Counted from the first letter of the stretch, positions 6,622 to 55,612 are shown. The stretch is 64,000 nucleotides of DNA from a bacterium (GCA_011046415.1 DSAP01000090.1:4590-68589); one strand, 5' to 3'. Program-made: numbers and translations. Notes: generated by a model from the sequence alone, not told the origin.

Positions 6622-6631
6622 GATTTCATTC

Positions 6632-21250: not shown

Positions 21251-21272
21251 AAGCATGAAAGGAGGGATTGCG

Positions 21273-39276: not shown

Positions 39277-40041
39277 ATGAAATCCCATTTTGAAAAACAC
39301 GTCCTGCGTCATCCTCCGTGGTATCCGATTTTAATCACCGCAACCCTTTTCTCGTTTTTGGGATGTCAACAATCCAGAAGGGAGAGCGCCATGCAGCAGG
39401 GAGAAGACCCGTATGTCAGACAAAGGCATGCGATGGTTTCAAAGCAGATCGCCGGCCGCGGGGTGAAGGATCCGCGTGTCCTGGCCGCGATGGAAAAGGT
39501 GCCGCGACATCTCTTCGTTCCCGACAACATCAGGTCGCACGCCTATGAGGACAGCCCCCTGCCGATCGGATACAATCAGACCATATCCCAGCCTTACATC
39601 GTGGCGTACATGACGGAGCAGCTTGTCCTGGAGGGCGACGAACGTGTTCTCGAGGTCGGTACGGGGAGCGGTTATCAGGCCGCCGTGCTGGCCGAACTGG
39701 TCCCTGAGGTGTATACGATCGAGATCATCGAACCCCTGTCGGTCACGGCACGGGAACAGATCGAGAAGGCGGGATTTGAGAACGTCCACTTCCGGGTCGG
39801 CGACGGATACCTGGGATGGCCGGAAGCCGCGCCGTTCGATGCGATCATGATCACGGCCGCTCCCAGGCAGATACCGGAAACGCTCATCGGCCAGCTCCGG
39901 GTTGGTGGAAGGATGATTGTTCCCGTCGGACAATGGCATCAGGAACTCCTCCTTATCACCAAAAAAGAAAAAGACTATTCCGTGAAGAAGCTCCTGCCCG
40001 TACGTTTCGTTCCCATGGTCCGATCCCGGTCTGATGAATGA
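39277..40041 (+). CDS. pcm: protein-L-isoaspartate O-methyltransferase with N-terminal lipoprotein-type signal peptide
   Basis: PIMT motifs (VLEVGTGSGYQAA, GDGYLGWPEAAPFDAI, GGRMIVPVG) preceded by a 40-aa extension MKSHFEKHVLRHPPWYPILITATLFSFLGC. Confidence 0.8.
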   Translation: MKSHFEKHVLRHPPWYPILITATLFSFLGCQQSRRESAMQQGEDPYVRQRHAMVSKQIAGRGVKDPRVLAAMEKVPRHLFVPDNIRSHAYEDSPLPIGYNQTISQPYIVAYMTEQLVLEGDERVLEVGTGSGYQAAVLAELVPEVYTIEIIEPLSVTAREQIEKAGFENVHFRVGDGYLGWPEAAPFDAIMITAAPRQIPETLIGQLRVGGRMIVPVGQWHQELLLITKKEKDYSVKKLLPVRFVPMVRSRSDE

Positions 40042-40195
40042 AACGACCGGCTTATCGTTTCAAGGCCGTTGTCCATATTCCCGATATCCCGGTCACGAAC
40101 CGGGATATCTTCCGGAGATGAAACATTATCGAGAAAATCCTGTAAAATATAATGGACTTATCAAAAAACTCTTAATCGAAGAAAGATCGGAAAAA

Positions 40196-40858
40196 ATGTC
40201 GCCTGCCGAAGGAAGAAAGTGGAGAAAGTCGGATTCGAACCGGATCATCGCCGGCGTCTGCGGGGGGCTGGCTGAGTATTTCAAGATCGATGCCACCGTT
40301 GTCCGTATTCTGTGGTTGGTTTCCATTTTTCTGAACGGCCTGGGTCTGCTCGCCTATCTGGTGGCGCTGGTGGTTTTGCCGGCCGCTTCGGATGATCCGG
40401 CGTCACGTGAAGGAGGCAGGAAATCCGGTTCCGGAGGCTGGCTTATTCTCGGTGTTCTGCTTATCCTCTTGGGTCTTTTCTGGGGGGTGCATAACTGGGG
40501 ATGGTACGCCGGGTTCCCCTGCCCGGGATTTACCCATTGGGGGAGGCAGGACTTCTGGCCGGTATTGCTGGTTGTCCTCGGTATTCTCTATCTGGTGCAT
40601 GTCCTCAAGGATTCGAAGGCCGGCGGCGGATCCGGCGGATCGTCCGGATCGACCAATACATCACGTTGGCCGTTTCATCGCACGACAGATGACCGGGTGA
40701 TCGGCGGGGTCTGCGGCGGACTGGCCCGGCATGTCCGCATCGATCCCACCCTGGTACGAATCGGAACCGTTGTTTTCGTACTGATGACGGGCGTCGTATT
40801 CGGCGTTTTGCTTTATGCGGCGGCCCTCGTCCTGATACCCGAAGAAAAGAAGGCATGA
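40196..40858 (+). CDS. membrane protein with two PspC domains
   Basis: RIIAGVCGGLAEYFKIDATVVRILWLV and again RVIGGVCGGLARHVRIDPTLVRIGTVVF, each followed by TM helices; start uncertain (40118 or 40196). Confidence 0.7.
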   Translation: MSPAEGRKWRKSDSNRIIAGVCGGLAEYFKIDATVVRILWLVSIFLNGLGLLAYLVALVVLPAASDDPASREGGRKSGSGGWLILGVLLILLGLFWGVHNWGWYAGFPCPGFTHWGRQDFWPVLLVVLGILYLVHVLKDSKAGGGSGGSSGSTNTSRWPFHRTTDDRVIGGVCGGLARHVRIDPTLVRIGTVVFVLMTGVVFGVLLYAAALVLIPEEKKA

Positions 40859-40885
40859 CCAGATGAAAAGATCTGGATTGGTTCC

Positions 40886-41428
40886 ATGAAAGAAGAAAAA
40901 CGTTCCATCATCCCCGGTGTCCTGCTCGTTTTGGCCGGTTTATGGTTGTTGTCACGCGATGTGATTCAACAACACGGTATCTGGGAACGCATTTATCCGC
41001 TTGTTATTCTGGTTTTTGCCGGATTTTACTTAATCGACTGGGTCCGCAGGAAAAAGGAGGACACCTTTTTCTGGGCTGTTTTCTTTCTGCTTACCGGCCT
41101 TTTCTATTTGTTGCGGAATTATGATTTAATTCCCTACCTCTATATCGAGGAGTACTGGCCGGTTTTTTTCCTTTTCTGGGGACTGGGTTATCTGGTACGT
41201 TTTTTTCTCCGTCCCGCCGAATGGAACATCCTGATTCCCGCCATCCTCTTCCTCTTTATGGGGGCCTTCTTTTTTTTACATGCGGCGGGTGGTGTTCTTG
41301 ATTTTCCCGATATTGAGATCGAGAAATACTGGCCCGCCGGTCTTATCGTCATCGGATGCGGGTTGTTGATCAGTGCATTATTCAAATCTTTAAAAAACAA
41401 TTCTGACCAGGGGCAGATTCGATCCTGA
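40886..41428 (+). CDS. polytopic membrane protein (LiaF-N-terminal-like/DUF5668-like), PspC partner
   Basis: 180 aa, five or six TM helices, Trp/Phe-rich; 27 bp after the PspC gene. Confidence 0.45.
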   Translation: MKEEKRSIIPGVLLVLAGLWLLSRDVIQQHGIWERIYPLVILVFAGFYLIDWVRRKKEDTFFWAVFFLLTGLFYLLRNYDLIPYLYIEEYWPVFFLFWGLGYLVRFFLRPAEWNILIPAILFLFMGAFFFLHAAGGVLDFPDIEIEKYWPAGLIVIGCGLLISALFKSLKNNSDQGQIRS

Positions 41429-41472
41429 ACCCGCATTGTCACATATGTTAAATTAAATTCATATTTTTCTCC

Positions 41473-41501
41473 TTGACATTCCGCCTGAAATCATCTAAAA
41501 T
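41473..41501 (+). promoter_or_regulatory. sigma-70-like promoter (TTGACA-N17-TAAAAT) for hybrid kinase 1
   Basis: Exact -35 hexamer, 17-nt spacer, good -10; about 70 bp upstream of the TTG start. Confidence 0.45.
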
Positions 41502-41572
41502 CAAGTTGGTATTAAAGATTCACTCCATTTGACCAGTTTCTCTATCGACAGTAAACCGGGAGCGTAAGCGGG

Positions 41573-44047
41573 TTGTCGATTTTCTTTAAAAAAGGAAAAG
41601 ATGCATCATTTGAAAAGGACCAGTCCCTTTCTTTCATTGCGTGGGGTGTGGGACAGGATTTCTATGCGGATGCCGTTCATCCCGAACAGCGCACCCAGAA
41701 ACTGCTCTCGGAGATACAGCGGCGTACTTTGGCCGATCAGGCACTGATTGCCGGTTCGAATTTCGACACTGAAACGCTCGAAATCCTGTATTGTGCCCCT
41801 CCCAAAGAACCTTCGCTTATCCAGCCGGATGTCATCCGGCTTTTGCTTGAGAAGGTATTCGTCGAAAATAAAATCCTCGATCTGAACGAATTCGCGGATA
41901 TCGATCCGGTCGTACGGTATCTGAAGGACAGTCAGGTTTCCTCGATTCTGATCTGCCCTCTCAATATCCACGAAAAAACCATCGAGGCGTTGATTGTCGT
42001 CAATTATTATGAGGGTCATGATAACCGGATGCAGGAGTTCATCCAATTCGTCTCCGCCACATTGGCCGTTTCGCTGCAGAACACGGGGCTCTATGCCATC
42101 CTCCATGACAAGGAAGAGGAAATTTCCGACTGGTCCGAACAGGTTGGCCAACGGATCGAGACCGACGCCAAACAATTTCTTGAAAAGGAATTTCAGTATT
42201 ACAATCTGTTTGAAGAAGCCCCCTATGGCATCATCGTCCATAGCATCGAAGGGCGTATTCTTGAGGCCAACCAGGCCGCCCGTCAGATTCTCGGGTATGA
42301 CAAAAAAGGCCTTTTAGAGAAGAAATGGTCGGATCTCGTCGAAGAAGACCTGGATGTCCGGCTGAATACTTTCTTTGCGGATATTTTGCGTACCCAGAAA
42401 GCCGGCACCCTCGAAATTTCGTTCATAAAAAAAGACGGAACACAGTTCTGGGCGGATCTCTGTTCTCAGCGGGTCAGGCTTCACGGAAAGATCGCCCTCG
42501 AGACCTTTATCCGGGATATCTCTCAGCAAAAGGTGCGAGAGGCGGAATTGCAGGACAAGCAAAATAAATATGAGGTTTTCGTCGAGTCGTCTCTGGTCGG
42601 TGCGTATGTGATCCAGAATGGACGCATCCATTTCACCAATGAGAAATTCGAAGAATTATGCGGATTTCCGAAAAAAGAACTCTTTGACAGTGAGTTTATT
42701 CAACTGATCGCCCCGGAAGACCGGAGCATGGTTTTGAGTCGCGAGATGCGCAGGGAGAAGGGTGATAGTGTTCCCGATCAATATGAAATCCGTTTTCTTA
42801 AAAAAGATGAGGAACGCTGGTGGGGCGAAGTGCGTTGCCGGAGGATCGAAGTGGATGGCAACCCGGCTATACTCGGTAATGTGATCGATGTCACCCAGCG
42901 AAAACGCCTCGAAGTTCAGCTTCTTGAAAGCCAGAAAATGGAATCCATCGGCACGCTCGCCGGTGGCATCGCCCATGATTTTAATAACCTCCTCGGCGGT
43001 ATCCTGGGATATGCATCGCTGTTGATGAGTGATATGCCCAAAGATCACATCTATTTTGAAGACATCCATACTATCGCAGAAACCGCCAAAAAGGCAGCGG
43101 ACCTTACCAACCGGCTCCTGGCCTTTGCGCGGGGCGGCAAATATCAGGTGACAGCGATCGACAGCAACCGAATTGTGGATGATGTGGTGGCCATTCTTTC
43201 CAGAACCGTCGACCGTTCAATCGCCATAGAAACCCATCTGGTAAAGAACTTATGGCATATCAAGGGGGATTCCCAGCAGATTCATCAGGCGTTTCTCAAT
43301 ATTTGTCTCAATGCGATCGAGGCCATGCCGGGCGGTGGAAAACTGATGATATCCACGGCGAACGTTATCCTGGACGAAGCGTTCGCACAGGCACAGATGG
43401 GGGGCAGTCCCGGTGATTACGTGCGGATTACCGTAAGCGACACCGGCATCGGCATGGACGAGAAAACCAGACGTCGGATTTTCGAACCCTTCTTTACCAC
43501 CAAACCCGCCCAGGCGGCCAAAGGCCTCGGACTCGCCATGGTTTACGGCATTGTGAAAAATCATGAGGGCGCAGTTCTTGTAGACAGCGTGCTGGGGAGC
43601 GGCAGTAAATTTACACTCTATTTTCCGAAATATACGGAGGAGGAGAGTCCGGAGCCTGAATCCGGTGAACCGGTTCTTTCTGCCAAAAAGGGGACAGTGC
43701 TGCTCGTCGACGATGAAGCGGTCATTCGCCGTGTGGCCAAACGGATGCTCGAGAGAGGGAACTATGAGGTGATTTCGGCCAAGGACGGCCAGGAGGCGCT
43801 GGCGATTTATGAAGAAAGACAAAAAGATATTCATCTGGTGCTGATCGACCTGATCATGCCGGGAATGAACGGGACCGAAACGGTTGAAAAGCTGAAGAAG
43901 ATCAATCCCGATATCAAAGTCATTTATACCAGCGGATACGGTCTCGGCGATCATCCCGAACTGCAACATCACAATGTGGACATGTTTATCCAGAAACCGT
44001 TTCAGACTGAAATCCTGATCGAGAAAGTCGCGCAGCTGCTTTCCTGA
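41573..44047 (+). CDS. hybrid sensor histidine kinase (GAF-like, two PAS, HisKA, HATPase_c, receiver)
   Basis: H-box IAHDFNNLLGGILGYASLL; N/G1/F/G2 boxes (NAIEAM, DTGIGM, FEPFFTTK, GLGLAMV); C-terminal receiver with phospho-Asp in VLIDLIMPGMNG. TTG start. Confidence 0.85.
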   Translation: MSIFFKKGKDASFEKDQSLSFIAWGVGQDFYADAVHPEQRTQKLLSEIQRRTLADQALIAGSNFDTETLEILYCAPPKEPSLIQPDVIRLLLEKVFVENKILDLNEFADIDPVVRYLKDSQVSSILICPLNIHEKTIEALIVVNYYEGHDNRMQEFIQFVSATLAVSLQNTGLYAILHDKEEEISDWSEQVGQRIETDAKQFLEKEFQYYNLFEEAPYGIIVHSIEGRILEANQAARQILGYDKKGLLEKKWSDLVEEDLDVRLNTFFADILRTQKAGTLEISFIKKDGTQFWADLCSQRVRLHGKIALETFIRDISQQKVREAELQDKQNKYEVFVESSLVGAYVIQNGRIHFTNEKFEELCGFPKKELFDSEFIQLIAPEDRSMVLSREMRREKGDSVPDQYEIRFLKKDEERWWGEVRCRRIEVDGNPAILGNVIDVTQRKRLEVQLLESQKMESIGTLAGGIAHDFNNLLGGILGYASLLMSDMPKDHIYFEDIHTIAETAKKAADLTNRLLAFARGGKYQVTAIDSNRIVDDVVAILSRTVDRSIAIETHLVKNLWHIKGDSQQIHQAFLNICLNAIEAMPGGGKLMISTANVILDEAFAQAQMGGSPGDYVRITVSDTGIGMDEKTRRRIFEPFFTTKPAQAAKGLGLAMVYGIVKNHEGAVLVDSVLGSGSKFTLYFPKYTEEESPEPESGEPVLSAKKGTVLLVDDEAVIRRVAKRMLERGNYEVISAKDGQEALAIYEERQKDIHLVLIDLIMPGMNGTETVEKLKKINPDIKVIYTSGYGLGDHPELQHHNVDMFIQKPFQTEILIEKVAQLLS

Positions 44048-44113
44048 TCCTCCGATCCCATCCGGTGCCTGCAATTTCGTCCAAAAAAAATAAAAACAAA
44101 ACAGTTCTCAATT

Positions 44114-44129
44114 TGGAACAAGGTTTGCT
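44114..44129 (+). promoter_or_regulatory. possible sigma-54 promoter (TGGAAC-N5-TTGCT) upstream of hybrid kinase 2
   Basis: Correct GG-N10-GC spacing; -24 deviates from the consensus (A for C after GG); about 90 bp upstream of the start. Confidence 0.3.
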
Positions 44130-44220
44130 TTTCGGTTAAGAGATCATGGATTCTCTGACTGTTAATGTGTTTTGATAAAGACGGCGGTGTTCAGCAGGAT
44201 GCTATCCGGAAACTTTGTCT

Positions 44221-46668
44221 ATGCAGATAAGTCCAGATAAAACAGAAATCTCGGATGGTCTTCTCTCCGAGCGGCTACTCGAAGAACTCTATTCGAAGGC
44301 AGATATCCTGTATTTTCTGCTGGACGATCAATTCCAGATTGTTTCATGCAATGTCACGGCACAGGAAAAAATGGGCCATGACAAAAAACAACTGGCCGGA
44401 AAAAAATTCCTCGATCTGGTTCCGAAAATCGATCAGGCCGATTTTGAGAAAAAACTCCAGATATGTGCGACCAAAGGTTATCTGCGACATTTCATCGCCT
44501 CGCTGCGCGACCATCACAACAAATCGATCGATGTCGGCGTCAACGGGTTGTTGATCGTTTCAGAGGATGGCGGTCAGTCACATTTACGGCTTTTTATCAA
44601 GGATATTTCGGAGCAGGTACGCAATGCACGACAGCGTCTCCTCTCCACCCAGATTCTGCAATATCTGACTCAAAAGCCAAAAGAGAAAGATGCCATTCGT
44701 TATCTGCTTCGTGAAATCTGGGAAAGCCGCCTCTCGACCGGTCTCGGAATCTTTCTTGAGGATTCCTTCGGCAAGAAATTTTCTCTCGGCACATGGGGGA
44801 ATCTCGGATCCAGTTCCGAGAATACGTTTTCCGAACAACCCGCATGGAATCCCCGTAAATGGACGCGGGTCCGGGATGCGGTCAGGGATATTTTTTCTGT
44901 CCGGTGGACGGATCACGGCAGTTTCTGGGTCGATTCCCTGTCCGATGTGGTTCTTGAGCTGGAAAATTTTCCGGAAAAGGATAATCTGCTCGCGTTGTCC
45001 GATTATGAATCCCTGGCCATCTTCCCCCTCAACACGAAGACCTATTCAGGCTATCTCGTTCTGACGCACACAGCCTATGGGCGCTGGGATCGTGAGGATG
45101 TCGAGTTCTTTGAGTCGCTGATTACATCCCTGTTGCTGCTCGAATCCGAAACTCCCATTGACGACGTAGCCTTTTCTGCACCCCAACCGACTGCGTTCCT
45201 CCAACAGATACCGTTTATCGGGGTGCTGTATATTCAGAAAGGCCGGATCCGGTTTGCCAACCCCTGGATGCATGAAGTCCTCGGTTTTTCGGAGGAAGAA
45301 TTCCTCGATAAACCGGTTCTGGATATCGTGGAACCGGCTTATCATGAAGTTGCCGAGAATCTGACGGTTGAGATCCGGTCTGAAGCGCATCATTCCCGGT
45401 GTTGGGAAATCGGATTCAGGGACAGCGAGGGCAAATCCCGGCTGACGGACTGTGTTGTCGCGCCCTGCGAGAAGGACGGATCTCAAATCTGGTACCTCAA
45501 CGCCAGGGAATCCGTTCAAAAAGACGAGGAAGACGAATCCGTCAAGGCCAGGAAACTGGAATCTCTCGGCACCCTGACAGACGGTATCGTGCATGATTTT
45601 AACAATGTACTGTCGAATCTAATGGGCTACAGTTCACTTTTAAGCGAAGAGGTTCCCAAAGACAGTCCTTATTACGAGGATGTTCAGGAGATCGCCAAAA
45701 CAAGCGAAAAGGCCTCCCAACTCACCAGCCGTTTGCTTTCATTCACCCAGGACAAACCCCATGTCGTCAAGGATCTGAATATAAACGGCCTTATTACCGA
45801 GGTGGCCGGGGTTCTCTCGCGGACGATCGAAAAAAACATCACGATCCAGGCTGAACTCGACGATCAACTCAAATGCATCGAGGGAGACGCCGGCCAGATT
45901 CAGCAGGCTTTTCTTCAGGTGGCATTCAACGCACGAGATGCCATGCCGATGGGAGGGAAACTGCGTTTTCAAACCCGCAACATGAGTCTCAGTGAAAATG
46001 CGGCCAAACATCAGAACGGTGCGAAATCCGGAGAATACGTCCAGATTATTATCAGTGATACGGGACAGGGGATGAACGCCAAGATCAGGGAGCAGGTTTT
46101 CAACGCCCAGTTCTCCACCAAAAACCAATCGGGACGTGGATATGGATTGACCCTTGTCCAGGATGTCGTCCAGAAGCATCAGGGATTTATATCGGTCTTC
46201 AGCGATATGACAAAAGGCACCATTTTTAAAATCCATTTCCCGGCCGCCGAGAAGACTGTGAGGGAAATCTCGAACCCCGTTCCTTATTCGCATGCTCACA
46301 CACGCGAGACCATCCTTCTTATAGAAGATCAAACGAAATTCCGTGAGAGTGCCATTAAGATGCTGAGTCATTACGGATACAAGGTGATCGGCGCAGAGAA
46401 TCCGAATGAGGCCATGGCGATCTACAAAAAATACATAAACCGAATCGATGTGGTCATTCTCCAGATGATTTCACCGGGTGTGGAGGTTCAGAAAATACTG
46501 GCCGCGCTTAAGAAAATCAACCCGGCGGTCCGTATTATCGCTTCAGCCAATCCGGGCGAAGATGCGTTAATAGATCCGCGTCTCCGAAAATATTTTGCAG
46601 GTTTTGTCCAGAAGCCTTTCGACCAACGCCTGCTTCTCCGCGAGATTCAGGGTGTCATGAACGCCTGA
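44221..46668 (+). CDS. hybrid-type sensor histidine kinase (PAS, HisKA, HATPase_c, C-terminal pseudo-receiver)
   Basis: H-box IVHDFNNVLSNLMGYSSLL; intact N/G1/G2 boxes (NARDAM, DTGQGM, GYGLTLV). The C-terminal receiver has Gln in place of the phospho-accepting Asp (VVILQMISPG). Confidence 0.8.
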   Translation: MQISPDKTEISDGLLSERLLEELYSKADILYFLLDDQFQIVSCNVTAQEKMGHDKKQLAGKKFLDLVPKIDQADFEKKLQICATKGYLRHFIASLRDHHNKSIDVGVNGLLIVSEDGGQSHLRLFIKDISEQVRNARQRLLSTQILQYLTQKPKEKDAIRYLLREIWESRLSTGLGIFLEDSFGKKFSLGTWGNLGSSSENTFSEQPAWNPRKWTRVRDAVRDIFSVRWTDHGSFWVDSLSDVVLELENFPEKDNLLALSDYESLAIFPLNTKTYSGYLVLTHTAYGRWDREDVEFFESLITSLLLLESETPIDDVAFSAPQPTAFLQQIPFIGVLYIQKGRIRFANPWMHEVLGFSEEEFLDKPVLDIVEPAYHEVAENLTVEIRSEAHHSRCWEIGFRDSEGKSRLTDCVVAPCEKDGSQIWYLNARESVQKDEEDESVKARKLESLGTLTDGIVHDFNNVLSNLMGYSSLLSEEVPKDSPYYEDVQEIAKTSEKASQLTSRLLSFTQDKPHVVKDLNINGLITEVAGVLSRTIEKNITIQAELDDQLKCIEGDAGQIQQAFLQVAFNARDAMPMGGKLRFQTRNMSLSENAAKHQNGAKSGEYVQIIISDTGQGMNAKIREQVFNAQFSTKNQSGRGYGLTLVQDVVQKHQGFISVFSDMTKGTIFKIHFPAAEKTVREISNPVPYSHAHTRETILLIEDQTKFRESAIKMLSHYGYKVIGAENPNEAMAIYKKYINRIDVVILQMISPGVEVQKILAALKKINPAVRIIASANPGEDALIDPRLRKYFAGFVQKPFDQRLLLREIQGVMNA

Positions 46669-46775
46669 TCCCTGAAAAGCATCTCATTTTCTCTCTTTTC
46701 GCAACAATCATGACAACCCGGATGCTTGTCTTTCAGATCCGATGGCTTAAATCTTTTCATTTGTCCAGATTTATC

Positions 46776-46804
46776 TTGACAATCATCCCTGAAGGTTGTA
46801 TTAT
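46776..46804 (+). promoter_or_regulatory. sigma-70-like promoter (TTGACA-N17-TATTAT) for the leuA/cimA-like gene
   Basis: Consensus -35, 17-nt spacer, near-consensus -10; about 55 bp upstream of the start. Confidence 0.45.
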
Positions 46805-46861
46805 TTTTATTCTGCGGGGAATGACTCTGAAAAAAATCATTTTTTGTGTAGGGAAAATGCT

Positions 46862-48424
46862 ATGGCTGAAAAAGTGATGATCATGGACACCACATTGCGT
46901 GACGGTGAACAAATGCGCAATGTCAGTTATTCATCCGAAGAAAAACTCAGTGTCGCACGGATATTGCTCGATGAAGTCAGGGTATATCGCATCGAGATCG
47001 CCAGCGCCCGCGTCAGTGAGGGAGAACAAAAAGCCGCCCAAAAAGTGCTTCAGTGGTCCAAATCGGCCGGTTATCTCGACCGGGTCGAGATCCTCGGTTT
47101 TACGGATCATACGAAATCGGTCGATTGGATCGGCGGCATCGGCGGCAAGGTAATCAACCTGCTCGCGAAGGGCGACAGGCAGCATGCCGAAACCCAGCTT
47201 GGAAAAACCAAGGAAGAACATGTGGCGGATATCCTGAAGACGATCTCCTATGCGTCCGATCAGGGATTTATCTGCAATATCTACCTCGAAGCCTGGTCAC
47301 ATGGTATGATCCGATCGCGGGATTATGTCTATTATCTGATCGATGCGATCAAAGACACCCCCATTGTCCGATATATGCTCCCGGATACGCTCGGTATCCT
47401 GTCGCCGAGCCAGGTGGCCCAATTCACCCGGGATATGATCGACCGGTACGGTGACATCGGGTTTGATTTTCACGCCCATGATGATTACGGAGTCTCCGTA
47501 GCCAATACGCTCACCGCCGTGGAGAACGGTATCCGCTGCGTGCACACGACCATCAACGGCATGGGTGAGCGGGCCGGCAATGCGCCTCTGGATGAGGTCG
47601 TGGTCGGCATCCATGATTTTCTGAAAATGGAAACAGATGTCGATGAGAAACAACTTTACCATGCCAGTCAAACCGTATCGATTTATTCGAGCTGCCGTAT
47701 CGCATTCAACAAGCCGATTTCCGGTCCCAATGTGTTTACACAGACGGCCGGTATTCACGCCGACGGCGATAAAAAAGGGAACCTTTACTCGAGCCAGTTG
47801 CACCCCGATCGGTTTGACCGGGCCTATGAATACGCCTTGGGTAAATTGAGCGGAAAATCCAGCCTGGATTACAACCTCGATAAGATGGGCATCACACTCA
47901 GTTCCGCACAGAAAAAGAAAGTGCTTGAGCGTGTGATTCTGCTCGGAGACCGCAAGGAATCCATCACCGAGGCGGATCTGCCTTATATCATCTCGGATGT
48001 GCTTGAGACGCCGCAGGACAAGACGTTCGAATTCCTTTCATCCGTAATCGTGACCAGCATCGGGTTGAGGGCCGTGGCCGCGGTCAAATTGCGGTACCAG
48101 AATCCGGATACGCAAAAAACCGAGGAATGGGAAGAGAATGCCAGCGGCGACGGCGGCTATGATGCCTTTATGAACGCCATCCGGTCGATCGCAGGCAAGA
48201 TCCGGATCGAACTCCCGCGGCTGGCCGATTATACGGTTTCCATCCCGCCCGGTGGAAAAACCGATGCGCTGGTTCAGTGCGCCATCATCTGGGAATTGGA
48301 TGAACGGCGTTTTGTGACGCGTGGGTTGAATTCGGATCAGGTCCTGGCCGCCGCCGAAGCCACTGAGAAGATGCTGAATTTAATTACGTTACCCCACCGT
48401 TCTAAACAGAAGGCCGAGCCATAG
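46862..48424 (+). CDS. 2-isopropylmalate synthase / (R)-citramalate synthase family (LeuA/CimA)
   Basis: HMGL-like TIM barrel beginning IMDTTLRDGEQ, metal ligands HAHDDYG...HTTINGMGERAGNA, C-terminal LeuA-dimerisation/regulatory domain; about 520 aa. Confidence 0.8.
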   Translation: MAEKVMIMDTTLRDGEQMRNVSYSSEEKLSVARILLDEVRVYRIEIASARVSEGEQKAAQKVLQWSKSAGYLDRVEILGFTDHTKSVDWIGGIGGKVINLLAKGDRQHAETQLGKTKEEHVADILKTISYASDQGFICNIYLEAWSHGMIRSRDYVYYLIDAIKDTPIVRYMLPDTLGILSPSQVAQFTRDMIDRYGDIGFDFHAHDDYGVSVANTLTAVENGIRCVHTTINGMGERAGNAPLDEVVVGIHDFLKMETDVDEKQLYHASQTVSIYSSCRIAFNKPISGPNVFTQTAGIHADGDKKGNLYSSQLHPDRFDRAYEYALGKLSGKSSLDYNLDKMGITLSSAQKKKVLERVILLGDRKESITEADLPYIISDVLETPQDKTFEFLSSVIVTSIGLRAVAAVKLRYQNPDTQKTEEWEENASGDGGYDAFMNAIRSIAGKIRIELPRLADYTVSIPPGGKTDALVQCAIIWELDERRFVTRGLNSDQVLAAAEATEKMLNLITLPHRSKQKAEP

Positions 48425-48535
48425 GATAGAAGGGTACGATCGGTGCCCGGCATCCTATTCCGCTAGGCAAAAAATTCTTGATTCTTGCGTCCAATTGTTT
48501 ATATTGGTTAAACATTCAATCCGGCGGGTCGATCG

Positions 48536-49213
48536 ATGGATATTTTTGAAGGCAGACAGGCTATTCGTGAACGGCTGTTGTCTGATGCCACCCATCGCAT
48601 GAAAAATATCATGGGTGGGATCAGCGGTTTTGCGGCTTTGATTTTAAAAGATTTAGACGAAGGATCGCATCATTATCCTTTGGTCGAACGGATTCAGGAA
48701 AATGTCATTCGCCTCGATCAGTTCCTCCTGGATGTCATGACTTTGGTTCGGGAACGGACAATGTATTCCGAGACCATCGATCTGCCGAGTACAGTCAGGG
48801 ACGTGTGTGTGAATCATTATGCGGATCCGGCCGACGACAACCCTGACTATCCCTTCAAGATCGAATCATCTCCATCGAGAATTCCGTTCAGGGCCGATCC
48901 GTTACTCATACGAAACGGATTATATCATGCGCTTCAGATTGTGGATGCGCTTTCGAGTAAAATCGAAACACTTCGGATCGAATCCGATGACGCGGCCGTG
49001 TCATTGCGTTATATCTTTGTCTGTGACAAATCCCTCAATGCCTTAAAGGAAGATATTCTGGCCGGATTGGGCAGCATTGAATCCGTCGATATACAACTGT
49101 CTCTCGCAGTCTGTCTGAAATTGATGCGGATGCACCAAGGGGAAGTTCAGATCGACCATCTGGACGGAAAACGCTGGATTTTCCTTCTGCGGTTCAGTCT
49201 GAATGACAGATGA
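48536..49213 (+). CDS. histidine-kinase-like protein with H-box but degenerate ATP-binding domain (no sensor)
   Basis: DHp helix HRMKNIMGGISGFAALIL, but the downstream region lacks DxGxG (G1) and GxGLGL (G2); 225 aa; directly upstream of the NtrC-family regulator. Confidence 0.5.
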   Translation: MDIFEGRQAIRERLLSDATHRMKNIMGGISGFAALILKDLDEGSHHYPLVERIQENVIRLDQFLLDVMTLVRERTMYSETIDLPSTVRDVCVNHYADPADDNPDYPFKIESSPSRIPFRADPLLIRNGLYHALQIVDALSSKIETLRIESDDAAVSLRYIFVCDKSLNALKEDILAGLGSIESVDIQLSLAVCLKLMRMHQGEVQIDHLDGKRWIFLLRFSLNDR

Positions 49214-49354
49214 AACAGGACGGAGTTTTCCCGGTCATCTATCAATAACGGTACGAAGTCTGTATGGTGAACGGCAAAAGGCAGGTGCGGGCGCGCGGGA
49301 TGCTCACTAAAAACCGTTTCATATGCAGATCAGGTTAGAAAGGAATCAGACGGT

Positions 49355-50728
49355 ATGGGCGCCGAACAGAAACGCATACTTGTCGTCGATGATGAAGATG
49401 TGATCAGGGAGCTTCTTTTCGAGATGCTTCAACGCAAATCGTACACCGTGGAAACCGCACCCACGGGCAAGGCCGCATTGCAGATGGCCGAGGAGAAGGC
49501 TTACGACCTGATCGTGAGTGATATCCGGCTTCCCGATGTGAGCGGAATGAAGATTCTCGACCGGCTCAAGAAGAAACAGCCGGATTTGGGCATCATTCTC
49601 ATCACGGCGTACGGCTCGATCAAGAACGCGGTGCGCGCCATGAAACAGGGGGCGTTCGATTATATCACAAAGCCCTTTGATCTGGATGAAATCGAATTGG
49701 TCATCGATAAGTATTTTGAATATCAGAATCTGGTCGTCGAGAACCAGTATCTCCGCTCGGAACTCGACAGGAAGTTCAGCTTCGAGAACATCGTCGGCGC
49801 CAGCGACCCCATGCAGCGTGTCTTCGATTCCATCCGCATGGTGGCCAGAAGCAGGGCCACGGTGCTGATTCAGGGATCCAGCGGCACAGGCAAAGAACTG
49901 GTGGCACGGGCGATTCATTACAACAGCGACCGCAAACACCGGGCTTTCATCACGACCAACTGCGCCGCGCTTCCCGAAGGACTGGTCGAAAGTGAACTGT
50001 TCGGCCATGAGAAAGGCGCATTCACCGGTGCCTATAGAACAAACATCGGGCGCTTCGAAATGGCCGACGGCGGCACCATTCTGCTCGACGAAGTCAGCGA
50101 AATCAGTCTGCCGCTTCAGGCCAAATTGCTCCGGGTCATCCAGGAGCGGGAAATCGAGAGAGTCGGAGGCGGGAAGCTCATTCCGGTGGACGTGCGAATC
50201 ATAGCGACCACCAACCGCAACCTGAAAGAGGAGGTCGAGAAAGATAACTTCCGTGCCGATCTCTTTTATCGGCTCAATGTGGTGCCGATCTATTTACCCC
50301 CGTTGTCCGAGAGACGCGAGGATATTCCCCTTCTGATCAAGTATTTCGTTCATAAATTTGCCGCAGAGAACGGGAGTCCCCTTAAATCCGTCTGCGAAGA
50401 GGCCATGCACATGTTGACCGAGAGAGATTGGCCCGGCAATGTCCGCGAAGTCGAGAACGCGGTGGAGAGAGCCGTGGTCATGAGCGGGCCGGACGTCAAT
50501 AACCTTGAATCCAAACATTTCTTTTTCTCGGATCAGTCCGAAGCCGCTTCTTCGTTTAAAATGGAGACCGGCCAGATGACGCTGCATGATATGGAGAAAA
50601 ACCTGATTCTCAAGACACTGAGAGAGAACGCGGATAATCGGACCAAAACGGCCGAGATTCTCGGAATCAGCGTACGTACGCTCCGCAATAAATTGAACGA
50701 GTACCGGGCCGACGGTATCACGGTTTAG
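49355..50728 (+). CDS. sigma-54-dependent response regulator / bacterial enhancer-binding protein (NtrC family)
   Basis: Receiver domain (phospho-Asp in DLIVSDIRLPDVSG), AAA+ sigma-54 activator domain (GSSGTGKELVARAIH, ESELFGHEKGAFTGA), C-terminal Fis-type HTH. Confidence 0.9.
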   Translation: MGAEQKRILVVDDEDVIRELLFEMLQRKSYTVETAPTGKAALQMAEEKAYDLIVSDIRLPDVSGMKILDRLKKKQPDLGIILITAYGSIKNAVRAMKQGAFDYITKPFDLDEIELVIDKYFEYQNLVVENQYLRSELDRKFSFENIVGASDPMQRVFDSIRMVARSRATVLIQGSSGTGKELVARAIHYNSDRKHRAFITTNCAALPEGLVESELFGHEKGAFTGAYRTNIGRFEMADGGTILLDEVSEISLPLQAKLLRVIQEREIERVGGGKLIPVDVRIIATTNRNLKEEVEKDNFRADLFYRLNVVPIYLPPLSERREDIPLLIKYFVHKFAAENGSPLKSVCEEAMHMLTERDWPGNVREVENAVERAVVMSGPDVNNLESKHFFFSDQSEAASSFKMETGQMTLHDMEKNLILKTLRENADNRTKTAEILGISVRTLRNKLNEYRADGITV

Positions 50729-50969
50729 CCTGAATCATCCCTTTCCTGAGGGATCTGGTGGAATTGAAAACCGAAGTTTGTGAATAGATGAGGGATTGGA
50801 TCGGGACTGAACCGTAACCGACTGTGGACTGTGCTTTTCCGGTTAATCAGGAAAAGGCAGGCCGAACAAAGCCGTATTTTTCACAATAAACCACGTTTCA
50901 AATTATAAACACACTGCACAGATCGGCAATTCTCTCCTGATCAATGGAAAGAAACCTTATCAGTGTTTT

Positions 50970-50984
50970 CTGATTCTGAATCAG
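50970..50984. promoter_or_regulatory. 15-bp perfect palindrome CTGATTC-T-GAATCAG, candidate enhancer site about 70 bp upstream of the 51050 sigma-54 promoter
   Basis: Perfect inverted repeat in a 400-bp AT-rich intergenic region. Confidence 0.3.
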
Positions 50985-51049
50985 CTTCCATTTGATTATC
51001 AAAGCATAACCAATTGTATATTCAGAGATTATATCAACCGTATACTCCA

Positions 51050-51065
51050 TGGCATGGATGTTGCT
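51050..51065 (+). promoter_or_regulatory. sigma-54 (-24/-12) promoter for the receiver / REC-PAS-HisKA operon
   Basis: TGGCAT-GGATG-TTGCT with GG-N10-GC spacing, about 60 bp upstream of the 51124 start. Confidence 0.5.
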
Positions 51066-51123
51066 TTTTGTCCGGTGTGTGAGATGTGTAAATGGTTAGA
51101 ATTTTCGGCCAAAGGAAATTATC

Positions 51124-51492
51124 GTGGAACCGGTCAAACATGTGCTGTTTGTCGATGATGAAGAGGAAGTCCTGAAAATCCTTGTGGATTATTTTTCGGA
51201 TACCGGGTATGCGTTGCATGTGGCCACCGGGGCCGAAGATGCGCTCAGGATCATCGGAGAAACGCCGATCGATCTGGTTTTTTCCGATCTCCGGCTCAAG
51301 GACGGCCTCGGAACGGATTTGCTGAACACGGTTAAGAAGACATACCCGGGGGCTCTCCGTGTCCTCACATCCGGGTATCTGGATATTCGCTTCGGAAAAA
51401 TTCAGGAAGACCAGGTGGACGGTACCCTGTATCTATCCAAGCCCTGGAACCTGGCAACGCTGAAGACCCTTATCGCCCAGCGGATTGGATGA
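51124..51492 (+). CDS. single-domain response regulator (CheY-like receiver)
   Basis: DDEEEV acidic pocket, phospho-Asp in DLVFSDLRL, conserved Lys in SKPW; GTG start. Confidence 0.7.
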   Translation: MEPVKHVLFVDDEEEVLKILVDYFSDTGYALHVATGAEDALRIIGETPIDLVFSDLRLKDGLGTDLLNTVKKTYPGALRVLTSGYLDIRFGKIQEDQVDGTLYLSKPWNLATLKTLIAQRIG

Positions 51493-52564
51493 ACACGTGG
51501 CTCAGAAGAAGAAAATCGTTTTTATCGACAACAAATCGGCATATCGGAAGATCGCGAAAGAGGCATTTCAATCGACACCCTATGAATGTGTGATATGCAA
51601 GACGGGGCAGGACGGATTGAATACGATCGCCTCCGTGCATCCCGATCTGGTGGTTGTCGAGGCTTTTCCTCCCGACATGTCCGGGGAAGAGATCTATCTG
51701 CAGTTTCTCTCCAATCCGGAATACCGCAACCTGAGGAAAATCCCGTTTATCGTCCTGACCGAGAATGGACATGTGGACCGGTCCCGGCTCTACGGCATGG
51801 GGTTCAGCGCCTGTATGAGAAAGCCGTTTAAAGCCAGAGAACTGATCGAGTTTGTCGAGGATGCCCTGGTCTCCCATCAAATCAAAATGGAAGAGATGTA
51901 TTGCTGGGAAACCATCCGCGAGGCCAAGGATTTTCTGGAACGCGTCGTTGAGACTTCTCTCGATGCCATCGTGACGACGGACAACGGCGGTATCATTACC
52001 TATTGCAACCGTGCCTGCGAAGAAATGCTTGGTTACAGCTTTCAGGAATTGATCGGCAAACGTGTCAGTCAGTTTCTGGTTTGCGGCGCCTCGGAGCTCC
52101 TAAAAATCAGCGCCTATCTGCGCAAACGCAATCAACTTCAGAATTATAAGACCGTGATCATCGGGAACAGAAATCAGAAGGTCTCCATCAATCTTTCCCT
52201 CTCGACGATGCGTGATTCCGAGGGAAAAGTCATGGGCGCCCTGGGGATCGCGAAAGAGACCGGGGGTGAAAAATTTGCCGAATATGATTCCCTGGCTTCG
52301 GGCCGTCTCGCGACCGTAGTCGAAACCGCCGTAGCCGTCAATCACGCGGTGAACAATCCGCTGGTGCCGATACTCGGGAATGCCCAGTTCTTGCTCCAGG
52401 ACGACAGGCTGATGGACGAGGACATCCGCCGCCGGCTCCGCGTGATCGTCAAGAATGCGTTGCGGATCCGTGATATCACACAGAAGTTGGCCAGCATATC
52501 CCATCCCGTGACCAAGGAATATCTCAAGGGCACCCGGATGCTGGACATCGACGCATCGACCTGA
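51485..52564 (+). CDS. atypical receiver-PAS-HisKA protein lacking the HATPase_c catalytic domain
   Basis: Receiver with Glu instead of phospho-Asp (DLVVVEAFPPDMSG), PAS (ETSLDAIVTTDNGGIITYCNRACEEMLGY), HisKA H-box (VNHAVNNPLVPILGNAQFLL); ends about 70 aa after the His. Confidence 0.6.
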   Translation: MDEHVAQKKKIVFIDNKSAYRKIAKEAFQSTPYECVICKTGQDGLNTIASVHPDLVVVEAFPPDMSGEEIYLQFLSNPEYRNLRKIPFIVLTENGHVDRSRLYGMGFSACMRKPFKARELIEFVEDALVSHQIKMEEMYCWETIREAKDFLERVVETSLDAIVTTDNGGIITYCNRACEEMLGYSFQELIGKRVSQFLVCGASELLKISAYLRKRNQLQNYKTVIIGNRNQKVSINLSLSTMRDSEGKVMGALGIAKETGGEKFAEYDSLASGRLATVVETAVAVNHAVNNPLVPILGNAQFLLQDDRLMDEDIRRRLRVIVKNALRIRDITQKLASISHPVTKEYLKGTRMLDIDAST

Positions 52565-52573
52565 ACCATCCCT

Positions 52574-52604
52574 ATAAAATAACTGTATTTTATCCCCCTT
52601 TTTT
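52574..52604 (+). terminator. terminator-like hairpin with C5T6 tail after the REC-PAS-HisKA gene
   Basis: ATAAAATA-ACTG-TATTTTAT then CCCCCTTTTTT; the stem is all AT, so it is weak. Confidence 0.3.
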
Positions 52605-52672
52605 CTTGCATTTTATGGGTACTTTCAGTAAGTTTTATCTCTGGAATTCTGTTTGACTTTGAGGAAAAGAAT

Positions 52673-53689
52673 TTGAAGGGCAGAGTAATCCTGGTTGTTT
52701 TTTATTTCCTGATTTCGGGAAATACGGTAACCGGTCTGACGGTGGGGAAATACGCGGGAGATTTCATGGCTGTGGGTGTCGGCGCCAGGGCGCTCGCCCT
52801 CGGAGGCGCTTTCACGGCCGTTGCAGATGATATTTCCGCAGGATACTGGAACCCGGCCGGTCTGTCGCGGCTTTCTCATGTCCAGGTGATGATGATGCAC
52901 GCCGAACGGTTTGGGGGGATTGTGAATTGGGATTTCATGGGAGTCGGGCTGCCGCTCCGGGGCGAATCCGCGGTTGCCCTTGGCCTGTATCGGCTCGGGA
53001 TCGACGGGATCCCCCTGACCCGGTTAAGGGATCCAAAACGGGAAATGGGCGATATCTATTTCGACGAATCCGGGAGGCGGCTTCAAAATGTGCCTTATGC
53101 CTATAAATACACCAGTCCCAATGATCTGGCACTTGTCGGTTCCTACAGCTCAAAGTTGGATGACAAGATACGGATCGGATTGAACGCCAGGCTGATTCGT
53201 CGCTCGGCGGATGTCTATGAAGCATGGGGAATGGGTTTCGACGCCGGTATCCTTGTTCATCTTGAAAACCGATGGCAAGTCGGAGCCATGATTCGGGACG
53301 CCACCGGTACGCTGCTGGCCTGGAACGGAGGACGGAAAGAATGGATTCTGCCCAGATTGCAGGTGGGTGTCGGTTATCCGTTCCAGGCCCGTTCGTTCTC
53401 CTTTCTCCCCATACTCGATGTGGCCATCCATTTCGACAATACCGTGCAAACCACGTTCAAGATGGGACGGGTAAGCATGGAGATCATGGGAGGCCTTGAA
53501 ATCTGTTACCAGAACCGAATCGCTTTGCGGTTCGGTTCAAACCGCGGTGCTTTGACGGCCGGTACCGGTTTCCGGATCGCTTTCTTTTCTGTGGATTATG
53601 GTTTTCAGACCCATTCGGAACTCGGACTCACACACCGTGTCTCGCTCACGATAACGGATATTCGGGATAAGCTCAGTCAAAACCGTTAA
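52673..53689 (+). CDS. PorQ/PorV-family (FadL-like) outer-membrane protein, T9SS-associated
   Basis: Signal peptide; N-terminal hallmark GARALALGGAFTAVADDISAGYWNPAGL; 338 aa beta-barrel-like. Confidence 0.55.
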   Translation: MKGRVILVVFYFLISGNTVTGLTVGKYAGDFMAVGVGARALALGGAFTAVADDISAGYWNPAGLSRLSHVQVMMMHAERFGGIVNWDFMGVGLPLRGESAVALGLYRLGIDGIPLTRLRDPKREMGDIYFDESGRRLQNVPYAYKYTSPNDLALVGSYSSKLDDKIRIGLNARLIRRSADVYEAWGMGFDAGILVHLENRWQVGAMIRDATGTLLAWNGGRKEWILPRLQVGVGYPFQARSFSFLPILDVAIHFDNTVQTTFKMGRVSMEIMGGLEICYQNRIALRFGSNRGALTAGTGFRIAFFSVDYGFQTHSELGLTHRVSLTITDIRDKLSQNR

Positions 53690-53783
53690 TTATTTCGTCA
53701 TTTTTTATTTTCATATTGATTCTCCGGTTTTATTTTTGTAAAATACACATTCTCAGGTGGTTATCATTATTTATGAGTACAGG

Positions 53784-54674
53784 ATGAAACAAATCACTGT
53801 CCGAAGCATGACAGGGTTGGGTGTGGCTGAAGTCCAGGAAAACGGCGTGACCGTCACGGTTGAAATCCGTGCGGTCAACAACCGGTTTCTCGAGATTTCG
53901 ACGCGGCTGCCCCAGTCCGCCTCCCGGCACGAACAGGAACTGCGCGAATACGTACGTTCCCGGATCGAACGGGGGAAATTATATATCACGATCACGGTAC
54001 AGCATGAGAACGGCAATCCGTTTGCATTGCGCGTCATGCCGGACAAAGCGAGGTCGATCCGGCATCTTTTAATGGAACTCAAGAAAGAGGCAGGCATCGA
54101 AGAATCCCTGACGCTTGATCATTTCCTGAAATTCTCTGAAATCTTTGAACCTGCAGAAAACGGAAGGTCTGATAAAAGCCTGTGGCCGCAAATTTTACAG
54201 GCTCTCGATCAGGCTCTGGGAAACCTCGATATCATACGTCTGAAAGAGGGCACTTGTCTGACTGAAGACCTGATTCACAGAATCGGGAAACTTGAGGAGA
54301 AAATCGAAGCCGTGGAACGGATCGCATCCGCGAATCTTCACGAAAAACATCAAAGAACAGTCGAACAGATCGGAACCCTGATCGGACAGTATTCGTTGAA
54401 TGAAGACCGCCTGTACACGGAAATCGCCATCCTTTCGGACCGGCTCGACATCACGGAAGAGTGTGTCCGTCTCAAAAGTCATGGCCGGCTTTTTCTCGAT
54501 TCGCTGCGATCCGGAAAGTCTGTGGGGAAAAAACTCACATTTTTACTCCAGGAAATGAACCGGGAGGTTAATACCATCAGTTCCAAGGCGGCCAGTTTGG
54601 AGATCAGCCATCTGGTCGTAGACATGAAAGAAGAAATCGAGAGAATGCGGGAACAGGTTCAGAATCTGGAGTGA
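53784..54674 (+). CDS. yicC: YicC/YloC-family protein (stress-induced; endoribonuclease YicC)
   Basis: N-terminal MKQITVRSMTGLG...VEIRAVNNRFLE and C-terminal LQEMNREVNTISSKA motifs; conserved yicC-gmk-rpoZ-coaBC neighbourhood. Confidence 0.8.
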   Translation: MKQITVRSMTGLGVAEVQENGVTVTVEIRAVNNRFLEISTRLPQSASRHEQELREYVRSRIERGKLYITITVQHENGNPFALRVMPDKARSIRHLLMELKKEAGIEESLTLDHFLKFSEIFEPAENGRSDKSLWPQILQALDQALGNLDIIRLKEGTCLTEDLIHRIGKLEEKIEAVERIASANLHEKHQRTVEQIGTLIGQYSLNEDRLYTEIAILSDRLDITEECVRLKSHGRLFLDSLRSGKSVGKKLTFLLQEMNREVNTISSKAASLEISHLVVDMKEEIERMREQVQNLE

Positions 54675-54705
54675 AAAACTGCATCGTCATCGGGGAAAAT
54701 GCGTT

Positions 54706-55239: not shown

Positions 55240-55254
55240 CAGATCGGAGGATCT

Positions 55255-55548
55255 ATGGATAAAATCGCCCTGGAAGATTTATTGAAAGAGACAGACAATT
55301 TATATGAGACCGTGGTGGCCATGTCCAAACGGGCAAGACAGGTGAACGATGAACAGAAAAAAATTATCGATAAAGAGAGAGAAAACCTGCCTGTGCCTGA
55401 AACACGTGAGAGTGAAGATCTTGATGATGTTGAAATCGACCGTGAAGCACTGGCCCGGGAATATACAAAATATCCGAAACCGACTTTTGTGGCCATGAAC
55501 GAGATGAAAGAGAAGCAGATTCTCTGGGATTTTCCGGAAGAGGTTTGA
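55255..55548 (+). CDS. rpoZ: DNA-directed RNA polymerase subunit omega
   Basis: NLYETVVAMSKRARQV motif, 97 aa, located between gmk and coaBC. Confidence 0.8.
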   Translation: MDKIALEDLLKETDNLYETVVAMSKRARQVNDEQKKIIDKERENLPVPETRESEDLDDVEIDREALAREYTKYPKPTFVAMNEMKEKQILWDFPEEV

Positions 55549-55612
55549 TCCGGCATATTCATATGGTCGGGCCGGGAAATCAATCAACCGGATTATTCAG
55601 AGTGGCAGGTGG

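Follow-up and report, generated by a model that had tools for sequence, protein, structure and literature searches.

We analyzed a 64,000-nt window of bacterial DNA (GCA_011046415.1 DSAP01000090.1:4590-68589) and studied positions 41473-52604, where genes for signaling proteins cluster around a predicted sigma-54 activator and a kinase-like protein that appears to be blind to ATP. Seven genes lie on the plus strand between 41.4 and 52.6 kb, six of them encoding signaling proteins and one a cimA/leuA-like product. The signaling genes encode two hybrid histidine kinases, HK1 (41573-44047, 824 aa) and HK2 (44215-46668, 817 aa); the kinase-like protein, here called pHK (48536-49213, 225 aa); an NtrC-family enhancer-binding protein (EBP; 49355-50728, 457 aa); a CheY-like receiver (51124-51492, 122 aa, GTG start codon); and a receiver-PAS-HisKA protein (RPH; 51485-52564, 359 aa). 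A first-pass annotation, made by a model from the sequence, had counted seven signaling genes among eight. Our count is six among seven, and no further credible open reading frame (ORF) was found in the gaps between the seven genes. Searches of the whole window at Rfam gathering thresholds returned zero families, and the Hpt domain had zero Pfam matches at E <= 0.01 in any protein of the cluster.

Related loci were gathered by looking up contigs and by scanning GTDB with one genome for each species; this gave 27 loci, all of them in metagenome-assembled genomes (MAGs). Two of the 27 loci carry the label candidate division KSB1, as do the protein matches P0105 and P0282. The order HK1-HK2-pHK-EBP-CheY-RPH is kept at every locus with enough upstream sequence, corresponding to at least 13 distinct species-level genomes in which RPH identity falls as low as ~42%. 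Conservation of the neighborhood, on which the first-pass annotation had made its interpretation depend, is therefore borne out. At three loci (L009, L019, and L021), the cheY-RPH pair occurs without the other four genes adjacent, and these pairs retain the same upstream site and promoter that precede cheY elsewhere (described below). The members of the cluster diverge at different rates; between clades, pHK proteins share 20 to 31% identity, compared to 62 to 72% for EBP, making pHK the fastest-evolving member. Overall, these sequence comparisons support treating the six genes as a single functional module that is conserved among uncultured bacteria of the KSB1 type.

In Pfam, HK1 has two PAS domains, HisKA, HATPase_c, and a receiver; a GAF match is weak (E = 0.016). 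With its receiver at the C terminus and an Asp there to accept phosphate, HK1 has every element expected of a hybrid histidine kinase. Its best NCBIfam match is CckA (352 bits, under the cut-off), and its H-box reads AHDFNNLL. Across 13/13 orthologues, the phospho-accepting His, the N, G1, and G2 boxes, and the DD, D, and K residues of the receiver are invariant. The receiver has the beta4 motif F/Y-T-S-G-Y. Motifs of this FxSGY (FATGUY-like) kind are found in receivers that dock on transferases of the dimerization and histidine phosphotransfer (DHp) type, among them CckA-Rec, CpdR, MrrA, and SdrG (PMC9981736). Given these features, HK1 is predicted to be a complete, soluble, CckA-like hybrid kinase.

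HK2, which is annotated as starting with the ATG at 44221 (P0276, 815 aa), has PAS, HisKA, HATPase_c, and receiver matches in Pfam. Its N, G1, and G2 boxes are invariant in 28/28 orthologues, and the orthologue alignments of both kinases agree with the earlier statement that these boxes are intact. The phospho-accepting His of HK2 is retained in 25/28 orthologues and replaced in three (by D, L, and L). The His-less lineages, L004 (4516-7002), L013 (match at 4655-7036), and P0288, have the H-boxes GGIVDDFNN, GGIVLDFNN, and GSLVLDFNN. Because the N, G1, and G2 boxes are intact where the His has been lost, the catalytic and ATP-binding (CA) domain of HK2 seems to be under selection independently of the protein's own His. 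The receiver of the window protein reads VVILQMISPG, with Gln at the phospho-site, so that HK2 has the architecture of a hybrid kinase without the corresponding receiver chemistry. The first-pass annotation had pointed to this Gln; it is present, but it is confined to one HK2 clade (7/28 orthologues, including the window), within which the motif ILQM[IL]SPGVE is conserved.

One explanation of this pattern is a split class I kinase, in which the CA domain of HK2 (or HK1) would act in trans, such as within DHp heterodimers, to phosphorylate the His of pHK or RPH; taken literally, this is what the first-pass annotation proposed. Trans-autophosphorylation within a dimer is possible for class I kinases, and Rhodobacter CheA3/CheA4 is a split kinase to which such an arrangement would be the HisKA-type counterpart. 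The HK2 boxes persist in 28/28 orthologues, including the 3/28 without the His and the 7/28 without the receiver Asp, and both pHK and RPH have an invariant His and no working CA domain, as detailed below. However, the H-box subtypes differ: HDFNNLL (CckA-type) in HK1 and HK2, HKIKNxLGGI in pHK, and NHAINNPL in RPH (NtrB/AtoS-type). Heterodimers are therefore not obviously favored, and most HK2 proteins retain a His of their own. We consider trans-phosphorylation of this kind improbable, and we attach the same small likelihood to the fuller version, in which HK2 has been kept for its CA domain while pHK and RPH pass phosphate to EBP and CheY.

In Pfam, pHK matches HisKA only (E = 2.3e-6). HATPase_c has zero Pfam matches in the window protein and only weak ones in two of 54 family members (E = 0.007), whereas HisKA matches 51/54 members and HisKA_2 matches 1/54. 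The first-pass annotation had described pHK as keeping its H-box while losing G1 and G2, and had staked this on a sensitive profile search finding no complete HATPase_c domain; the description holds on both counts. In the window protein, Ile replaces the Mg-binding Asn of the N box, and G1 and G2 read CDKSL and DIQLSL, respectively. Within the family, the N-box position is Phe in 45/54 members and Asn in none, G1 shows no conservation, and a conserved [ED]xRLS[LI]A motif (window 49090-49140, residues ~185-200) takes the place of G2; this conservation indicates that the new residues in the dead ATP pocket are under selection. The phospho-accepting His (His20 in the window protein) is invariant in 54/54 members. 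It is followed at H+1 by K (46 members), R (6), or S (2) and never by an acidic residue, at H+4 by Asn in 54/54 members, and at H+7/8 by GG.

A word-indexed homologue search recovered only six relatives of pHK, and a full profile search was needed to reveal the family. The exhaustive profile search recovered 58 representatives at 50% identity (E <= 1e-10), nearly all ~210 to 260 aa long, with true kinases ranking below them. pHK aligns end to end with the kinase cores of ThkA and ZraS, and the family profile places ZraS as the closest solved relative by sequence (E = 2.7e-13). The AlphaFold model of pHK has a mean predicted local distance difference test (pLDDT) score of 72.8, with 78 to 92 in the CA-like part and low values in the DHp part, as expected because a dimeric hairpin was modeled as a monomer. 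The model retains a Bergerat fold and has short helices (residues 168-180) in place of the ATP-lid region of kinases. The ATP lid of ChpT is likewise swapped for helical turns (PMC3433190).

Compared with a class I HisKA kinase, pHK has the DHp domain with a phospho-accepting His and lacks a CA domain with N, G1, and G2 boxes. It has the predicted architecture of ChpT, namely a DHp hairpin with a His joined to a Bergerat fold without ATP-binding motifs, and it neither belongs to the ChpT family by sequence nor has ChpT as its closest structural match. We read pHK as an NtrB/ZraS-like kinase core in which the CA domain has apparently been repurposed rather than lost. To judge from its sequence, it lacks every ATP-binding determinant and is not the ATP-using kinase of the pHK-EBP pair, which makes it a candidate His phosphotransferase or phosphatase.

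The second protein without a working CA domain is RPH, in which Pfam finds Response_reg, PAS, and HisKA, followed by the stop codon. At E <= 1e-10, RPH homologues formed 129 clusters at 90% identity, of which 120 were listed and the 107 of full length (340 to 380 aa) were counted. The most common length among the 107 of 120 listed is 355 aa. In agreement with the first-pass annotation, a CA domain after the DHp domain is absent from the window protein, which ends 24 residues past HisKA and 108 nt before the next gene, and from all 107 full-length homologues. The DHp motif VNHA[IV]NNPLVPILGNAQ is invariant, with the His present in 107/107 homologues; H+1 is Ala in 93/107 and H+4 is Asn. The RPH model (pLDDT 79) comprises a receiver, a long helix, the PAS domain, a helical hairpin (residues 269-337), and a beta-hairpin (residues 343-353). 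The beta-hairpin corresponds to a conserved C-terminal stub, PVxKEYLxGTxMLD, and the last ~20 residues (PVTKEYLKGTRMLDIDAS, window 52500-52564) are nearly invariant in the family. The stub is probably a remnant of a deleted CA domain, comprising its initial strands, or else a docking motif. We ruled out that RPH is a truncated pseudogene, given its constant length and its conserved C-terminal stub.

The phospho-site of the RPH receiver is D in 91, E in 8, N in 5, and S in 3 of the 107 homologues, with the substitutions scattered, and the second acidic residue of the pocket is D in only 4/107. The receiver therefore looks largely phosphorylation-independent across the family, as far as active-site residues can indicate. 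In the window protein it reads VVVEAF. The first-pass annotation had drawn attention to the Glu at this phospho-site, which is there; however, the closest relatives (P0008-P0010 and L002) all have Asp, as does most of the family, so that among them the Glu is specific to the window. Because this Glu and the Gln of HK2 are lineage-specific, we do not regard either as core to the mechanism. The CheY-like receiver has canonical features: the DD, D, T/S, and K residues are invariant in 22/22 orthologues, and the beta4 motif is LTSGY (FATGUY-like) in 20/22. The cheY and RPH genes overlap by 8 nt in the window and by a few bases in relatives.

A profile-profile comparison of the pHK and RPH families gave only a weak match at the level of the DHp domain (probability 15%), and on this basis the two are not close paralogues. 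Because the His is invariant and the length constant in each, the sequences support treating both as selected families rather than as decay products. That the ATP-blind proteins are instead decaying pseudogenes or assembly artefacts, clustered by coincidence, could draw on the rapid divergence of pHK and on the departure of the window lineage from the family consensus at several points. Against this, the ORFs are intact and of constant length (58 pHK representatives; 107/120 listed RPH homologues of full length), functional residues are invariant, and the gene order recurs in independent assemblies from many samples. We consider these observations sufficient to exclude decay or artefact and leave it only the slightest probability.

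A stronger competitor is that pHK is a dedicated kinase-dead phosphatase, or anti-activator, that resets phosphorylated EBP (EBP~P), with RPH doing the same for CheY~P. The DHp His of HK1 or HK2 would then phosphorylate EBP directly, and the receivers fused to these kinases would be internal sinks or auto-inhibitors. Such a role needs no ATP binding, and the DHp domain is kept in both proteins. The invariance of the His (54/54 in pHK and 107/107 in RPH) counts against it, since a pure HisKA phosphatase can reportedly tolerate loss of the His, as for EnvZ. In HisKA proteins, an acidic residue at H+1 is required for kinase activity only and a Thr or Asn at H+4 for phosphatase activity only (PMC3510030); pHK and RPH keep the H+4 Asn, usually without the H+1 acid (K/R/S in 54/54 pHK; Ala in 93/107 RPH). 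PhyT was first interpreted in the same way, but it proved to be a transferase, and phosphatase activity was not detected in vitro (PMC5898713). Moreover, the FxSGY motif and perfect active site of the HK1 receiver point to onward transfer through a His carrier, and transferase and phosphatase roles can coexist in reversible relays. Weighing both sides, we regard a dedicated phosphatase as the less likely role, although a serious one.

The degenerate CA domains could also mean that pHK and RPH are pseudokinase scaffolds of the DivL/RetS kind, which are not phosphorylated and act allosterically on HK1 and HK2. DivL has Tyr in place of the His. In both families studied here, the phospho-accepting His and its H-box are the most conserved part of the protein, and a scaffold function consequently seems to us improbable.

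EBP matches Response_reg (3.7e-32), Sigma54_activat (4.5e-70), AAA_lid_14, and HTH_8 (3.9e-11) in Pfam. It thus has the composition of the NtrC family: a receiver, an AAA+ domain with the GAFTGA motif, and a C-terminal Fis-type helix-turn-helix. The DD, D, T, and K residues of the receiver and the GAFTGA motif are invariant in 18/18 orthologues. In NCBIfam, EBP scores 499 bits against AtoC, 427 against NtrC, 413 against ZraR, and 357 against LuxO; because it falls under the equivalog cut-offs for AtoC, NtrC, and ZraR, we assign it to an unnamed subfamily. On these sequence characters EBP is classed as a canonical sigma-54 activator of the NtrC/AtoC/ZraR type. The gap between the pHK and EBP genes is 0 to 17 nt in all relatives examined, compared to 141 nt in the window (49214-49354), and an insertion between the two genes appears to have occurred in the window lineage.

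We scanned promoter patterns on both strands of 490 kb of sequence. A sigma-54 -24/-12 promoter of cheY-RPH is predicted on the plus strand at 51050-51065 (TGGCATGGATGTTGCT), 58 nt before the GTG at 51124. The first-pass annotation had placed a promoter here, and the element is indeed present, with its position kept at 22/22 loci; the pattern TGGCAY-N5-TTGCB occurs 23 times in the 490 kb, 22 of them upstream of cheY orthologues. Similarly, a sigma-54 promoter of HK2 is predicted on the plus strand at 44114-44129 (TGGAACAAGGTTTGCT). All 10 occurrences of TGGAAY-N4-TTTGCW in the 490 kb are directly upstream of HK2 orthologues, covering 10/14 loci. Both predicted promoters have the -24 GG, the -12 GC, and the spacing of this class. 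At the pHK position, a sigma-54-type element (TGGCATGATTTMRGCW) is present at 11/18 loci and absent from the window, L001, and L002. These three have in common a TTGATT-16-TATATT element, predicted to be a sigma-70-like promoter (48478-48505, plus strand, in the window), and the sequence around it is conserved in L001 and L002. The predicted promoter of HK1 is also sigma-70-like (41473-41501, plus strand; TTGACA-17-TAAAAT, an 11/12 match to consensus), with counterparts upstream in L003 (TTGACT-17-TAATAT) and L004 (TTGACT-17-TACCAT).

Upstream of the cheY promoter lie putative activator sites (50925-50961, plus strand). Across loci, these are 13-bp palindromes with the consensus GGCAA-N3-TTGCC (intact consensus GGCAAAGCTTGCC), arranged in tandem at about -123 and -103 of the cheY promoter at 20/22 loci, with a spacing of 19 to 23 bp, mostly 20. 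In the window, site 1 (GGCAATTCTCTCC, 50925-50937) is intact and site 2 (~50946-50961) is degraded. Within the 490 kb, the tandem arrangement was found upstream of cheY and otherwise only in one chance-like match inside the HK1 gene of the window. Counts of single sites in the window are uninformative: TGGCAC-N5-TTGCW with up to two mismatches was found 20 times against 19.8 expected, and GGCAA-N3-TTGCC 19 times against 30 expected. The signal comes from conservation across loci only. As predicted, the cheY promoter region has the classical layout of an enhancer-dependent promoter, and the adjacent EBP is the obvious candidate for its activator.

Elsewhere in the window, a perfect sigma-54 -24/-12 element (TGGCACACAGGTTGCA) lies at 20337-20352, ~50 nt before three tandem Hsp20/alpha-crystallin genes (20401-20832, 20840-21250, and 21228-21767). 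Ahead of this element, ATGTCAATAYGGCA is directly repeated (~20246 and ~20277). The repeated sequence is unlike the upstream site of the module, and a different activator is probably involved.

The seventh gene, the cimA/leuA-like one (46796-48424, plus strand, 542 aa), sits between HK2 and pHK. Its product matches HMGL-like, HCS_D2, and LeuA_dimer in Pfam, and its best NCBIfam match is CimA (606 bits against a cut-off of 950), in keeping with the earlier report of a metabolic gene inside the cluster. Because the gene was found only in the window and L001 and is absent from every other locus, its distribution marks it as a lineage-specific insertion outside the module. A sigma-70-like promoter predicted at 46776-46804 (plus strand; TTGACA-17-TATTAT) overlaps the listed TTG start, and translation probably begins instead at an internal ATG near 46862-46880.

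The genes on either side of the module are housekeeping genes that are partly syntenic in relatives, with DUF374, SpoU, PCMT, PspC, and LiaF-TM upstream and PorV-like, YicC, Gmk, and CoaBC downstream. Because of this synteny, we assign the module to the core genome, and we ruled out that it is a horizontally acquired island. The G+C content of positions 40000-56000 is ~0.49 to 0.52, compared to 0.55 to 0.61 in large parts of the window's initial 30 kb; given that this interval includes housekeeping genes, the lower value is not taken as a sign of horizontal transfer. The flanks at 39277-41428 and 52673-54674 are conserved alongside the module in several relatives. The PspC-domain and LiaF-TM proteins encoded upstream, beside PCMT, are envelope-stress-type membrane proteins, and the PorV-like protein encoded downstream, beside YicC, belongs to the PorV/PorQ family of outer-membrane proteins.

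The most economical reading of the module's sequences is a phosphorelay that feeds the sigma-54 activator. To pass phosphate on to a terminal regulator, a hybrid kinase depends on a His transferase. The Pfam searches called no Hpt domain in the module's proteins, and pHK has the predicted architecture of the kinase-derived carriers ChpT, PhyT, and Spo0B. HK1 would autophosphorylate and hand the phosphoryl group to its own receiver Asp. A pHK dimer would take the group on its His and deliver it to the EBP receiver, and it may drain phosphate back when HK1 acts as a phosphatase. EBP~P would bind the tandem site and activate sigma-54-dependent transcription of cheY-RPH, and the induced proteins would form a second branch or a feedback loop. 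In that branch, the canonical CheY-like receiver has a beta4 motif (LTSGY) of the intermediary type. RPH would be a DHp protein without a CA domain, gated by its PAS domain and its largely phosphorylation-independent receiver, and its His would shuttle phosphate to or from CheY as a sink, a reset, or a side output. HK2 would be a second, inducible input.

The first-pass annotation had also proposed a phosphorelay through HisKA-only intermediates to the sigma-54 activator, and this outline survives with two changes. Because RPH is encoded in an operon behind the conserved upstream site and sigma-54 promoter, it is more likely to act downstream of EBP than to feed it. In addition, the annotation had the complete kinases supplying phosphoryl groups in trans from their cores; a route through the HK1 receiver is likelier, since that receiver is fully canonical and has the FxSGY motif. 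A relay from HK1 through pHK to EBP, with EBP driving cheY-RPH, is the overall reading that we favor, at a confidence evenly divided between its being right and wrong.

Several observations weigh against this relay. The absence of an acidic H+1 residue from pHK, together with its H+4 Asn, would suit a dedicated phosphatase equally well. In structure, the pHK model resembles real kinases and the pseudokinases DivL and RetS more closely than it does ChpT. In HK2, the CA motifs never vary, whereas the His is lost in 3/28 orthologues and the receiver Asp in 7/28. Binding of EBP to the upstream site is assumed from gene adjacency. A tandem site of the cheY type was not found upstream of the sigma-54 promoters of HK2 or pHK, and because this site occurs only at the cheY promoter, control of the other two promoters by EBP is conjecture. 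In the window itself, site 2 is degraded and pHK has a sigma-70-like rather than a sigma-54 promoter, so that the circuit may be partly rewired there. Finally, the source organisms are all uncultured and represented by MAGs.

The first-pass annotation regarded the arrangement as not matching a described system. We found no description of the module, or of KSB1 signaling, in the literature; its principle, however, is already known, both as kinase-derived His carriers with a dead CA domain and as hybrid kinases that feed a sigma-54 activator. A close parallel to the relay is CckA-ChpT-CtrA/CpdR of Caulobacter and other Alphaproteobacteria. HK1 resembles CckA as a PAS hybrid kinase with an HDFNNLL H-box and an FxSGY receiver. 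ChpT is a dimeric, kinase-derived His carrier in which a DHp domain is joined to a Bergerat fold unable to bind ATP (PMC3433190), an organization that pHK is predicted to share. In the Caulobacter relay, phosphate flow divides between a transcription regulator and a single-domain receiver that has a FATGUY-like motif (PMC9981736), and the module would branch in the same manner. In contrast, the terminal regulator of the module is a sigma-54 AAA+ activator rather than the OmpR-type CtrA, and the module has an extra hybrid kinase, a receiver-PAS-DHp protein, and sigma-54 promoters of its own.

In the Vibrio LuxN/LuxPQ/CqsS-LuxU-LuxO quorum-sensing system, hybrid kinases likewise converge on one His phosphotransferase and an NtrC-family sigma-54 activator, and flow reverses when the kinases turn phosphatase. 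LuxU, however, is a small monomeric Hpt four-helix bundle, whereas the carrier of the module would be a DHp dimer with a dead CA domain, and the module's inputs are soluble PAS/GAF sensors rather than membrane receptors. Adjacent kinase-activator gene pairs are also characteristic of NtrB-NtrC, ZraS-ZraR, and AtoS-AtoC, and EBP is closest to AtoC, NtrC, and ZraR. The NtrB-type H-box is HEIKNPLGG, which the HKIKNxLGGI of pHK resembles, but pHK differs from NtrB, ZraS, and AtoS in lacking a sensor domain, an acidic residue at H+1, and the N, G1, and G2 boxes.

PhyT (formerly PhyP), from the general stress response of Alphaproteobacteria, and Spo0B, from Bacillus, are, like pHK, degenerate kinases that keep the His, followed by a basic residue, and have a dead ATPase domain. 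PhyT, with an HRxxN motif and a degenerate ATPase domain, has been shown to be a phosphotransferase, and PhyT and Spo0B shuttle phosphate from single-domain receivers (SdrG and Spo0F, respectively) to a terminal regulator (PMC5898713). PhyT differs in its membrane anchor and in feeding PhyR, an anti-anti-sigma factor; the target of Spo0B is Spo0A. pHK, in contrast, is soluble and paired with a sigma-54 activator. The pHK family also differs from both in matching HisKA (51/54 members) and hardly HisKA_2 (1/54). In view of these comparisons, the pHK proteins are best regarded as a new family of His carriers or phosphatases that derive from kinases and evolved convergently. The module seems to have re-invented the ChpT/Spo0B type of relay independently and does not seem to embody a new principle.

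The module would be useful for annotation and for in vitro reconstitution, as a tractable circuit with three conserved predicted sigma-54 promoters, a 13-bp palindromic site, six soluble proteins, and natural variants in which single phospho-sites are missing, so that the influence of degenerate components on the flow of phosphate could be studied. If the relay reading is true, a deep-branching lineage of uncultured bacteria has independently turned a kinase into a His phosphotransferase, starting from an ancestor of the NtrB/ZraS type and thus by a different route from ChpT, Spo0B, and PhyT. In that case, hybrid-kinase relays without an Hpt domain would have arrived repeatedly at the same solution, a kinase core with a dead CA domain.

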